32,000 nt of DNA from positions 1,560,001 through 1,592,000 of the forward strand of contig NZ_CP011041.1 in assembly GCF_002310835.1 (NCBI RefSeq), read 5' to 3'. How positions within the stretch are numbered: position 1 is the first letter of the stretch; every line of letters starts with the position of its first letter. The stretch comes from Pseudoalteromonas tetraodonis (lineage in GTDB: Bacteria; Pseudomonadota; Gammaproteobacteria; Enterobacterales; Alteromonadaceae). Below are positions 6,672-25,939 of the stretch, piece after piece. The notes under the pieces were generated by a model. It was not told the DNA's origin. It saw only the letters and a list, made by a program, of their open reading frames with translations, and ran no database searches. The position numbers and the translations under genes were made by a program.

Positions 6672-7625
6672 TTAAACCATTTTAGGATCCCACATGGCAC
6701 CATCCCTCACCATAGAATTTATGATCACTACCAGTTTTCGTATGCACGCAATAATGGCTACCTTTTTAGGCTTTCCTGCTTTGACCATGCGTTGATAAAG
6801 GTCTTTAAATTTAGAGTTGCACTGAATGGCTGACATCATCGCCATGTACATGGCAGTTCTTATTTTAGGTCGGCCGCCACGTATCATTCGCTTACCTTGA
6901 TACACGCCACTTTCACGATTAAATGGGGCTACACCCATTAAAGAAACGGCCTCTTTGTTGTTCACATAACCTAACTCAGGCATATCACTAAGCAAGTTAA
7001 ATGCGACCACATTGCCAACACCTAGCACACTTTGGATAATGGCATTTTTTGCTTTGTATTCGTCTCATTCTTCAATCAGTTTTTGAAGTTTTAAATCGAC
7101 TTTATCTATTTGGTTTTTCAGTGCAGTTAAGATAGGTTTTATGAGTGACGATAGTGTTTTTGGCATTATTTGAGAGCGATTTTTCTCCATCGTTTGCATA
7201 TCCATTAACTGACGTCTTCTCGAGAGTAAATCGCTCATCAAGCGCATTTGCTCTGGCTTTAAAGATGATAAAGGCGGTTTAATCGCTTCACCAAAGTGAG
7301 CAATAAGTTGTGCATCAAGTTTATCCGTTTTTGCTTTTTGGCCGATAGCGCCTGCGAAGCGTTTTATGTTCACGGGATTAGCAATAACGAATGGAATATT
7401 CGCCTCAGCGCAGGCTATGATAAAAGGCTGTTCAAGACGTCCACTTGCCTCAATAGTAACGCGTGTTACTGGGTGTTTTTTTAAGATTTGAATGGCGTGT
7501 TTAATGCCACTTTGATTATTTTCTACAGTAAAGTAAATGTCTAAAGGCCTGATATAAATATCGAGTTGTGTTTTACCTGTATCGACACCGACGTTAATTT
7601 CATTTTGATTATTTATTGTATTCAT
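6672..7625 (-). pseudogene. IS110-family (MooV/IS492-like) DEDD transposase with one in-frame TGA
   Basis: Track ORFs 7065..7625 and 6672..7028 are in the same frame (7625-7028 = 597 = 3 x 199). The read-through sequence is ...KLQKLIEE*DEYKAKNAIIQSVLGVGNVVAFNLLSDMPELG.... The N-terminal part has the IS110-family DEDD-domain pattern, and the C-terminal part has the IS110-family (Transposase_20-like) pattern (helix-hairpin-helix GVG). Confidence 0.85.
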
Positions 7626-18929: not shown

Positions 18930-20207
18930 CTATAAAAAGTCAGCTAATGCGCTAAGTGTTGGCCGCTGTGTGATATTTTCGCTCATGCATTGCTGCGCAA
19001 TATGTTTTAAGTGCATGACTTCAGCGTTTTGCTCTTGGCAGGTTGTGAGTAAATCCTCGATTAAACACCCTAAAGCACGCACTTCTATTAACTGCATTTG
19101 TTGACGTTGATAGTCACTGAGCATAGTAAGATCAGTGGCCGCGCCAAAATCCCCAAACAGCACACGCGCGTGCGGGTCAACCATGGTATTGTGCGCATAT
19201 ATATCACCATGGCTTATATTGTGCTGGTGCAAGTGGGCCACAGTGCTAACCATTTGCTGCGCTATGGCATAAATTGCGTGGGTAGAGTAGTGGCAATCGC
19301 TTTCAAATGTATCTCTAGTACAGGTATCAAGGCTGGGCGGTAAGCCTAGATTTGTATAGCTTGTATCAATTAACTCCATCACTAAACCAAGCTGTTGCTG
19401 TTGTTCAATGTAAGCCAGTACTTTAATTAAGTTTGGATGCTCAAGCGCTTGCAAGCAACAATTAACTTCATCCAGCGGGTAACCATCGCTTGTAATAGTC
19501 CCTTTAAATAACTTAACAGCAACCGGCTCTTTATTCGTTGAATAAGCAAGATGGATAATCCCTGATGCGCCTTGGCCTATTACTTTACTGAGCGAGTAAT
19601 CTGCCAGTGGTTTATTGGCTAAATTTGATTGGGTAAGGCACTGTGATTTATTAAAGCAATTACCTGCAAATGCAAGCCAAGTCAGTTTTGGTAGTTCAAA
19701 TAGCCAATCATCAATTTGAGTTAACTGATTTGCAGAGAGCCTAACTAGTTCTAGGTTATGGCAGTTTGCCATGCTTATTGGTAGCTCACTGAGCTGATTA
19801 CCTGCCAATGCCAGCTTTTTAAGCGCAGTGTATTGGCCAAATGTTGCAGGCAGCTTAGCTATTTTATTATCTGTAAGAATAAGCCATTCAATCGTTTTAG
19901 GTAGGCAGTGATCTGCAAATTCAGTGATGTGATTACCTTTAAATGCAACCATTGTCAGAGCAGGGCACTTAGCGAGTATTTTAGGTATATGTTTAAACTG
20001 ATTAAACGATAAAAACAGTCGTTTTAATTTTGTTAGGCAGGCAAATTCATCAGGTAAATCAGATAAATTGTTATTAGATAAATCCAAGACTTCAAGGGTA
20101 TCCGCGAGGGTAAAAATTTCCTCTGGAAAGTGGCTTAGCGCTTCAACTAATTGTAGGTGTTTTGCACCAAGTAATTGGCCGCTGCGAAGTTGTGAAAGGG
20201 TATTCAA
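18930..20207 (-). CDS. Leucine-rich-repeat protein fused to a eukaryotic-like Ser/Thr protein kinase domain
   Basis: About 7 LRRs (LxxLxLxxNxLxxLP, e.g. LEVLDLSNNNLSDLPDEF, LKKLALAGNQLSELP). Then kinase motifs: GQGASG (G-loop), VAVKLF (Lys), HGDIYAHN (catalytic loop) and GDFGAA (DFG). No signal peptide or TM helix is visible. The only usable start is TTG at 20205-20207. Confidence 0.85.
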   Translation of the reverse strand: MNTLSQLRSGQLLGAKHLQLVEALSHFPEEIFTLADTLEVLDLSNNNLSDLPDEFACLTKLKRLFLSFNQFKHIPKILAKCPALTMVAFKGNHITEFADHCLPKTIEWLILTDNKIAKLPATFGQYTALKKLALAGNQLSELPISMANCHNLELVRLSANQLTQIDDWLFELPKLTWLAFAGNCFNKSQCLTQSNLANKPLADYSLSKVIGQGASGIIHLAYSTNKEPVAVKLFKGTITSDGYPLDEVNCCLQALEHPNLIKVLAYIEQQQQLGLVMELIDTSYTNLGLPPSLDTCTRDTFESDCHYSTHAIYAIAQQMVSTVAHLHQHNISHGDIYAHNTMVDPHARVLFGDFGAATDLTMLSDYQRQQMQLIEVRALGCLIEDLLTTCQEQNAEVMHLKHIAQQCMSENITQRPTLSALADFL

Positions 20208-25257: not shown

Positions 25258-25369
25258 CGAGGATCTCAGTATTGTTTTTATATAAATGAAATAGCTTAAT
25301 GTTGGCTATTGTATTTTAATTAGCTGCCCTTATATACTAGCTATCCTTTATTTTAGTTTTAAATGACAG

Positions 25370-25831
25370 ATGTTAAAATTTCGCGTTTTTTTAGCTACTT
25401 GCTTGTTTTTTGCTGCACTCTTTAGTGTGCAAAGCCATGCTATGGGCGTAAAGCACGAATTAAACAGTAACCAAAGCAGTTATAGCCATGTTGTTAATGT
25501 CGAAAATTTAACTAACGCTCCCACACCGTTAAAATCGCTAGGTAATTTACAGCATAAAAACTCAAAGCATTCTGAGTTTGCTGCGCATCAACCTAGGCTA
25601 ACAGCCAATAACTCATTTTTATTTTTACACAGTGCGCAGGGCGATCCTGAATACGATGTAGTGCATGAGTTTTTTGCGCTAAATGGGTGTAGGCATATTT
25701 TTTTGCGACCGCAAGCAGTCACCATAAATCAGCCTTGGTATACTTGGGTTTTTAAAAGTAAAAAGTCGCGCTTGAGCGGCTGGAAAGATGCGAATCTGTT
25801 ATACACCGCTGTAACCACCTACCACGCTTAA
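25370..25831 (+). CDS. vemP: VemP-like secreted translation-arrest (secretion monitor) peptide
   Basis: It has a signal peptide (MLKFRVFLATCLFFAALFSVQSHA) and sits immediately upstream of secDF. The C-terminal SRLSGWKDANLLYTAVTTYHA* resembles the V. alginolyticus VemP arrest motif HRISGWKETNAMYVALNSQFSA* as I recall it. Confidence 0.7.
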   Translation: MLKFRVFLATCLFFAALFSVQSHAMGVKHELNSNQSSYSHVVNVENLTNAPTPLKSLGNLQHKNSKHSEFAAHQPRLTANNSFLFLHSAQGDPEYDVVHEFFALNGCRHIFLRPQAVTINQPWYTWVFKSKKSRLSGWKDANLLYTAVTTYHA

Positions 25832-25832
25832 A

Positions 25833-25935
25833 GTTCCTTAATTATCGTTAATTGGTTTTAACGCATCGCGTTTTGACCTTAATTTTAATTGTGCCTAATA
25901 GGTACGTTACTGAGCTATGCCTAGTAATAAGGAAC
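25833..25935 (+). promoter_or_regulatory. Anti-SD / SD long-range stem controlling secD translation
   Basis: GTTCCTTA-A-TTA (25833-25844) begins 2 nt after the stop of the monitor ORF. It is complementary to TAA-TAAGGAAC (25925-35), which contains the secD Shine-Dalgarno 4 nt before the ATG at 25940. Confidence 0.65.
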
Positions 25936-25939
25936 AACT

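Follow-up and report, generated by a model that had tools for sequence, protein, structure and literature searches.

Among the closest described counterparts of the element considered here is the arrest peptide VemP of Vibrio alginolyticus (WP_017819886.1), which has reportedly been studied by Ishii in 2015, Su in 2017, Mori in 2018 and Miyazaki in 2020; the element itself is an open reading frame (ORF), followed by secD and secF, on the plus strand of a 32,000-nucleotide (nt) stretch of Pseudoalteromonas tetraodonis DNA (contig NZ_CP011041.1, positions 1,560,001 to 1,592,000; hereinafter the window, whose own numbering is used throughout). Members of the VemP family are defined by an RxxxWKxxNxxY-like motif (Fujiwara et al., 2024, Nat Commun 15:2711). 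According to the published mechanism for V. alginolyticus, the ribosome-binding site of secD2 is hidden in a stem-loop, which loses stability when a ribosome stalls next to it. Cryo-electron microscopy shows the V. alginolyticus peptide contacting the exit tunnel through R139 (A752), W143 (R92 of uL22), K144 (U747) and Y150 (C2610), with N154 stacked on U2506 and in contact with U2506 and U2584 at the peptidyl-transferase centre (PTC) (Su et al., 2017). We consider it highly probable that the ORF of the window encodes the Pseudoalteromonas orthologue of VemP, a Sec-pathway monitoring substrate for which arrest and regulation are predicted by homology.

The family is already on record in this genus. 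Several Pseudoalteromonas upstream ORFs (uORFs) carry the label ‘VemP / uDF_VemP_Enterobacterales’ in the published survey (Fujiwara et al., 2024, Supplementary Data 3); the term counts in the part of this table that was covered (96 occurrences of ‘Pseudoalteromonas’ at three per row and 328 of ‘VemP’ at two per row) imply at least about 32 Pseudoalteromonas rows among at least about 164 VemP rows. The listed protein of P. undina (WP_010389852.1), with a WKDAN motif at position 138, the predicted P-site residue at position 151 and a 108-nt intergenic region followed by a 612-amino-acid (aa) SecD (Fujiwara et al., 2024), has 153 aa, and its C-terminal 21 residues are identical to those of the window protein. 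The protein of P. marina (WP_010557458.1), also listed as VemP (153 aa, WKDAN at position 138, predicted P site at 151, 111-nt intergenic region, 612-aa SecD; Fujiwara et al., 2024), differs from the window protein within the same 21 residues at one position (K146 for T146), and otherwise both orthologues depart from it only by species-level substitutions in the signal peptide and the variable spacer. Because Fujiwara et al. (2024) classified these orthologues as VemP, the family of the window peptide has been catalogued before, and the window ORF is a Pseudoalteromonas member of the described VemP family, not a new one.

The ORF list agrees with the earlier note on a 153-aa ORF that runs from ATG to TAA at 25370-25831 (stop included) and encodes a protein starting with MLKFRVFLATCLFFAALFSVQSHA, followed by MGV after the predicted cleavage point, and ending with SRLSGWKDANLLYTAVTTYHA before the stop. 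The V. alginolyticus arrest motif that the earlier note gave as HRISGWKETNAMYVALNSQFSA agrees with the published one, which reads FYHFTSDHRISGWKETNAMYVALNSQFSA (Su et al., 2017; PMC5449182), and the proposed C-terminal likeness of the two proteins proved to be a significant alignment. BLASTP against V. alginolyticus VemP aligned R134-T150 with R139-S155 (E value 2e-4), and comparison of a profile of 19 Pseudoalteromonas homologues with one of five VemPs from Vibrionaceae and Psychromonas using hhalign gave a probability of 97.3% (E value 1.7e-11) over columns 123-153, the last 31 of the protein. The putative arrest motif, R134-Y151 (RLSGWKDANLLYTAVTTY; 25769-25822), fits the family consensus as R134-LSG-W138-K139-DA-N142-LL-Y145, with W138 encoded at 25781-25783 and the predicted P-site codon, that of Y151, at 25820-25822; the tail, H152-A153-stop, occupies 25823-25831 and begins with the predicted A-site codon CAC. 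When the window was translated in all six frames, R...WK..N..Y matched a single time, and 300 shuffles gave no match. The counterparts of the four tunnel-contacting residues of V. alginolyticus VemP (R134, W138, K139 and Y145) are all present and are invariant in the genus.

The conservation pattern shows purifying selection at the level of the protein. In the genus alignment, overall identity falls to about 36%, and past the signal peptide the indel-rich sequences can no longer be aligned, whereas the columns of K132, R134, S136, G137, W138, K139, D140, N142, L143, Y145, T150, Y151 and H152 are invariant. Among 22 distinct tails, R134, S136, W138, K139, D140, N142, L143, Y145, T150 and Y151 do not vary; H152 is found in 21 of the 22, residue 153 is variable, and the stop codon is UAA in 21. 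Over the 22 distinct 3′ ends, up to six synonymous codons are used per site (four for R134, six for L135 and four for S133), and since these residues are fixed while their codons vary, it is the peptide, not the RNA, that is constrained. An invariant C-terminus combined with a variable mature N-terminal part and no confident fold is what is expected for a regulatory nascent peptide rather than for a folded periplasmic protein. Two natural variants were noticed: Pseudoalteromonas sp. RW-H-Ap-1, the sole exception to His152 among the 22 tails, ends in TYYA instead of TYHA, and in Pseudoalteromonas sp. MMG010 the otherwise invariant Gly is replaced by Tyr (G137Y; NSRLSYWKDANLLYKAANTYHV).

The remainder of the protein provides further evidence. 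The cleavable-looking signal peptide reported in the earlier note (residues 1-24, MLKFRVFLATCLFFAALFSVQSHA; 25370-25441) is borne out by inspection, which shows a basic n-region (K3, R5), a 15-residue hydrophobic core and a cleavage motif in which SHA precedes M; the P. undina orthologue, identical in 22 of these 24 residues, carries the SignalP-6.0 call ‘SSio;1to24’ in Supplementary Data 3 (Fujiwara et al., 2024). The description of the middle as low-complexity did not hold as worded; this region is better described as hypervariable and indel-rich, with no confident predicted fold. In the Pseudoalteromonas alignment, hardly any column of the spacer proper (residues 25-73; 25442-25588) is conserved and its insertions reach about 20 residues, and the AlphaFold2 (AF2) predicted local distance difference test score (pLDDT) is below 50 for residues 26-97. 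It is followed by a conserved middle segment (residues 74-103, QPRLTANNSFLFLHSAQGDPEYDVVHEFFA; 25589-25678), in which R76, L77, N81, L84, F85, Q90, P93, Y95, E100 and F102 vary little or not at all in the genus. The EPxY/hhxEh block of this segment also aligns with the VemPs of Enterovibrio, V. nigripulchritudo and Psychromonas, so that the homology extends beyond the arrest core. In V. alginolyticus VemP, Arg-85 retards translocation (PMC7793623); the nearly invariant R76, at a distance of 75 residues from the predicted P site compared with 71 for Arg-85, may be its counterpart, although the alignment is ambiguous and MAFFT leaves the two residues unaligned.

These features also bear on the possibility that the ORF encodes a small secreted or periplasmic protein with a function of its own, for example a SecDF accessory factor that replaces YajC, and is merely co-transcribed with secDF. 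A signal peptide, moderate conservation of residues 74-128 and the constant association with secDF are all compatible with such a role. Nevertheless, searches of Pfam, NCBIfam and PDB sequences with the ORF protein returned no meaningful match, and specifically Pfam gave none at E values up to 1, hence none to YajC (PF02699); the AF2 model computed with the family alignment is not confident (mean pLDDT 48.7, predicted template modelling score 0.17), its sole confident helix being the signal sequence (residues 2-28); and the best conserved part of the protein is its very C-terminal end, which matches VemP. An independent periplasmic function thus appears highly improbable. The earlier note was correct in expecting such ORFs to be annotated as hypothetical: all 67 database homologues, every named source of which is Pseudoalteromonas, are labelled ‘hypothetical protein’ or are unnamed. 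With these labels, and with no Pfam or NCBIfam model available, annotation pipelines miss a known regulator, a gap that a hidden Markov model of the C-terminal module would mend.

The genes downstream are those expected of a VemP locus. The ORF, secD (25940-27778; 612 aa; Pfam SecD-TM1, SecD_1st, SecDF_P1_head and SecD_SecF_C; NCBIfam TIGR01129, 394 bits) and secF (27771-28700; 309 aa; Pfam Sec_GG and SecD_SecF_C; NCBIfam TIGR00966, 264.5 bits) are all on the plus strand; 108 nt separate the stop codon of the ORF from the start of secD, and secF overlaps secD by 8 nt. No YajC match was detected among the scanned window ORFs of at least 110 aa, in agreement with the earlier claim of a secDF without its yajC partner. 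The order vemP-secD-secF is kept in 27 related loci across Pseudoalteromonas, and the synteny is genus-wide, with an M13 peptidase and an ABC transporter on the minus strand followed by vemP-secD-secF on the plus strand; in the window, too, the gene 5′ of the vemP-like ORF encodes an ABC transporter and is transcribed divergently. A candidate promoter (TTGTAT, an 18-nt spacer and TATACT; 25309-25338, plus strand) precedes the ORF; it is below the threshold in a consensus scan, and a block running from ATTGTATTTTAA to TATACT is kept 5′ of the ORF in most Pseudoalteromonas loci.

The intergenic region has a predicted RNA structure that would sequester the secD Shine-Dalgarno (SD) sequence; it is conserved in relatives, with covariation in the hairpins that it encloses. 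In the minimum free energy (MFE) and centroid folds, an anti-SD element, GUUCCUU (25833-25839), which starts two bases past the stop codon, pairs with the AAGGAAC of the SD region (25929-25935; core AGGA at 25930-25933; 6 nt before the ATG). In the fold of 25800-25960 this helix closes a three-hairpin junction (H1, 25840-25890; H2, 25891-25905; H3, 25906-25928), the MFE z-score against shuffles being -2.74 and the probability that the SD is unpaired in the predicted free RNA being 0.00-0.01. Pseudoalteromonas loci were collected by exact-protein look-ups and one genome scan, yielding 24 loci with 23 distinct sequences for the covariation analysis; the anti-SD:SD architecture is the MFE structure in most of the 24. 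RNAalifold on the MAFFT alignment recovered H2 and H3 but not the outer helix, and a structure of 33 pairs was therefore specified by hand and compared on the alignment with 500 shuffles and slid controls. This structure is paired in 91.1% of cells (35-51% in the slid controls), compensatory changes occur in 19 of its pairs, including 17 of the 20 pairs counted within H1-H3, and none of the 500 shuffles reaches the observed covariation. The anti-SD:SD core is complementary in 22-23 of the 23 distinct relatives. In addition, GCUUAA, the last codon plus the stop, can pair with codons 2-3 of secD (25943-25948); this helix (alignment columns 7-12 and 159-164) is paired in 90.6% of cells, and both of its sides are coding. 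No match was found in an Rfam scan of the intergenic region. A scan for intrinsic terminators detected none on the plus strand of this region, and transcription attenuation was rejected on that ground.

Vibrionaceae loci, for which we used chromosome-2 sequences that are misfiled as plasmids in PLSDB, show the same geometry. In the predicted folds of V. fluvialis and Photobacterium, the anti-SD follows directly after the stop codon and the secD2 start codon is paired with codons of the tail. V. campbellii, with an arrest motif one substitution (I140L) away from the experimentally validated motif of V. alginolyticus, has a longer predicted intergenic structure, in which the region of the start codon is paired with the tail and stop. 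A V. fluvialis record (NZ_AP028132.1, pIDH5335-3) carries a complete vemP-secD-secF set on an 83-kb sequence typed as a mobilizable plasmid with a MOBP relaxase; it may represent a copy of the module on a mobile element or an assembly or labelling artefact.

If arrest occurs as in Vibrio, 13 residues after the Trp, Y151 would occupy the P site; the stop codon would then lie at +10 to +12, and the anti-SD would begin at +14, where the mRNA channel opens. A thermodynamic occupancy model with an assumed occlusion of 13, 15 or 17 nt gave, for this position, SD unpaired probabilities of 0.00, 0.03 and 0.62, respectively; with the ribosome one codon past Y151 and 15 nt occluded, the value was 0.65, and with the P site on the last sense codon the SD is freed (0.52-0.69). 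These figures, together with the location of the anti-SD immediately after the stop codon in all loci, are in line with plain translational coupling, in which the terminating ribosome of the leader ORF opens the SD helix and secDF expression follows vemP translation without any force-sensitive arrest. Such coupling, however, leaves unexplained the invariant 20-residue C-terminal peptide under synonymous codon turnover, the homology to an experimentally proven arrest sequence and the conserved signal sequence, and we regard it as improbable.

Under the VemP reading, the operon mRNA would be transcribed from a promoter just 5′ of vemP and, when free, would hold the secD SD in a helix with the anti-SD immediately past the vemP stop. 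Guided by the signal sequence, the ribosome translating vemP would reach SecYEG together with its nascent chain, and R134-Y151, once in the exit tunnel, would cause elongation to pause, presumably with Y151 in the P site. As long as export works, pulling on the nascent chain would end the pause, the ribosome would terminate and leave, and secDF would stay repressed. When export is slow, whether the trigger is low Na+ or a general Sec defect, the ribosome would remain parked, its mRNA channel covering the tail and stop and abutting or melting the anti-SD helix; the opened helix would leave the SD and start codon free, and SecD and SecF would be made.

Several observations weigh against this interpretation. 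The literature yielded no experiment with a VemP from Pseudoalteromonas, and no recognisable SD precedes the vemP start codon (25340-25369). Among the matches listed by the scan of genome contigs for a second secDF, all were orthologous loci. The anti-SD:SD core itself shows no covariation, which is attributable to the invariance of the SD side (AAGGA in all 24 loci). For a ribosome at Y151 that occludes 13 or 15 nt, the occupancy model keeps the SD paired (unpaired probability 0.00-0.03); given that the outcome depends on the footprint and that little SD opening is predicted for V. campbellii too, the model appears to be uninformative, for or against. Finally, 9 of the 15 important positions of the V. 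alginolyticus protein (HRIxGWKETNAMYVxLNxx), including the equivalents of L153 and N154, differ in the window peptide: R, G, W, K, N and Y are kept, four changes are conservative (I to L, E to D, M to L and L to V), and the others are H to S, T to A, A to L, V to T and N to T. The leader at 25340-25369 is A/U-rich (ttattttagttttaaatgacagATG), as are those of the relatives.

The changed positions raise the possibility of a decayed relic, in which the inherited motif no longer arrests Pseudoalteromonas ribosomes and secDF is constitutive or otherwise controlled. Here, V148 and T149 take the place of L153 and N154, the PTC-proximal residues of V. alginolyticus VemP, and T149 varies even within the genus. 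In Vibrio, the W143A substitution abolishes arrest. In P. piscicida (NZ_CP074588.1) and Pseudoalteromonas sp. NC201, the uORF before secD ends in NNGFIDNCKPANLTFKGSLNFAS and the stop, without the consensus R, W and Y; it has retained its signal peptide and middle block, together with an anti-SD that directly follows the stop and pairs with the secD SD, and the uORF of the P. piscicida lineage is listed as a VemP with the motif ‘CKPAN’ (Fujiwara et al., 2024, Supplementary Data 3). The many changed positions and this aberrant sister lineage could be taken as signs of decay, but a relic is hard to reconcile with strong purifying selection on the motif across proteins that are down to about 36% identical overall, with the co-conserved RNA switch, or with the variation of PTC-proximal residues over the whole VemP family; we accord it a very low probability.

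The Aliivibrio and Shewanella VemPs likewise have other PTC-proximal residues and two-residue tails (Fujiwara et al., 2024, Supplementary Data 3). The earlier note had expected the motif differences, including a tail one residue shorter, to be informative about arrest determinants; the shorter tail stands, but judging from the sequences compared, both it and the PTC-proximal differences are family-level variation, with the Vibrio states as traits of the Vibrio subtype and nothing special to Pseudoalteromonas. The VemP of Psychromonas ossibalaenae (WP_157601047.1) ends in ARIAGWKESNSLYSGSITYHS and the stop, with the same ‘TYH plus one residue’ tail as in Pseudoalteromonas (Fujiwara et al., 2024, Supplementary Data 3). 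Two families may thus share this tail subtype. Given the absence of the N154-U2506 contact, which silences the PTC in Vibrio, and an anti-SD helix only 14 nt past the Y151 codon, these TYH-tail VemPs could conceivably stall in a manner different from Vibrio, for example with His152 as a required A-site residue or with the stall at H152, A153 or the stop codon, and might control the main SecDF instead of a back-up copy for changes in salinity; we deem this rather unlikely. What the genus does offer is natural variation at positions important in Vibrio (V148, T149, G137Y and the P. piscicida uORF without R, W and Y), which could guide experiments on the contacts needed for force-sensitive arrest.

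The window SecD is 47-51% identical to SecD2 of Vibrio and Photobacterium and 39-41% identical to SecD of Escherichia coli and Proteus, values that are consistent with a SecD2 lineage; the window genes may be a second, SecDF2-type copy beside a yajC-secDF1. NCBIfam NF009545 was tried as a SecD2 marker and rejected as not discriminating (646 bits for E. coli SecD, 705 for the window protein). No Pseudoalteromonas SecF1 was found among the matches listed by a search of 50%-identity representatives with SecF and by cluster look-ups, which reached Pantoea, Orbaceae and Thiotrichales, plus one queA-tgt-yajC-secD-secF context, none of them placed in Pseudoalteromonas; literature searches on yajC or SecDF1 in this genus brought nothing of use. 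In PLSDB, only two Pseudoalteromonas records have a SecD match, those of P. piscicida and NC201, 1.2-1.3-Mb replicons that are filed as plasmids and carry the homologous locus, an indirect hint of a second copy. The closest genomes are a Pseudoalteromonas metagenome-assembled genome (SecD 98% identical) and RW-H-Ap-1 (92%; chromosome 1).

Some other genes of the window deserve mention. Directly after secF, a 162-aa ORF (28790-29278, plus strand) has only a C-terminal GreA/GreB domain (E value 2.5e-6) and is kept 3′ of secF in two close relatives but not in two more distant ones. The gene at 18930-20207 (minus strand) encodes leucine-rich repeats and a eukaryotic-type Ser/Thr kinase domain, and several relatives have it in the same neighbourhood. 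The ORF at 7983-8681 (plus strand) encodes a 232-aa protein with a YidC/Oxa1 (60KD_IMP) domain (E value 3.5e-25), a short paralogue of YidC type that is probably uncommon among gammaproteobacteria; it adjoins an IS110-family transposase that is divided between two ORFs (6672-7028 and 7065-7625, minus strand), and no obvious arrest-peptide ORF was seen upstream of it.

Among the known systems, the window locus can be compared first with that of V. alginolyticus VemP. Both have a uORF of about 155 aa with a signal sequence directly 5′ of a yajC-less secD-secF pair, an R-x3-W-K-x2-N-x2-Y core whose W lies 13 residues before the P site (here the predicted one), and a secD SD held in a predicted intergenic structure that adjoins the arrest site. 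Outside the motif, overall identity is only about 18%; the motif reads SRLSGWKDANLLYTAVTTY followed by HA and the stop here versus HRISGWKETNAMYVALNSQ followed by FSA and the stop in V. alginolyticus, so that the tail after the aligned P-site residue has two residues instead of three, and the intergenic region is 108 nt instead of 164 nt. The window protein has an upstream Trp, W123, in an invariant PW(Y/F), and 15 residues separate it from the motif W; for W124 of V. alginolyticus VemP, which contacts uL22, the distance is 19 residues. The replicon differs as well, being chromosome 1 in the closest complete genome (RW-H-Ap-1) and NC_022359.1, which we take to be chromosome 2, in V. alginolyticus. 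The uDF_RQH_Enterobacterales uORF of Alteromonas naphthalenivorans, a related marine gammaproteobacterium, is also located 5′ of secDF2, and lacZ reporters and the PURE system showed that the stalled ribosome opens a stem-loop masking the SD (Fujiwara et al., 2024). Its arrest motif, R-G-P-P, is proline-dependent and unrelated: the window protein has no RAPP/RGPP-type motif such as those of ApdA, ApdP and uDF_RQH, and no proline in residues 123-153, and thus none in the last 30. SecM of E. coli is encoded 5′ of secA, not secDF, and its motif, FxxxxWIxxxxGIRAGP, is not present in the window protein, which shows no sequence similarity to it and whose downstream gene is secD; the predicted logic is nevertheless shared, namely a secreted monitoring substrate whose arrest opens the SD-sequestering stem of a downstream Sec gene (Fujiwara et al., 2024).

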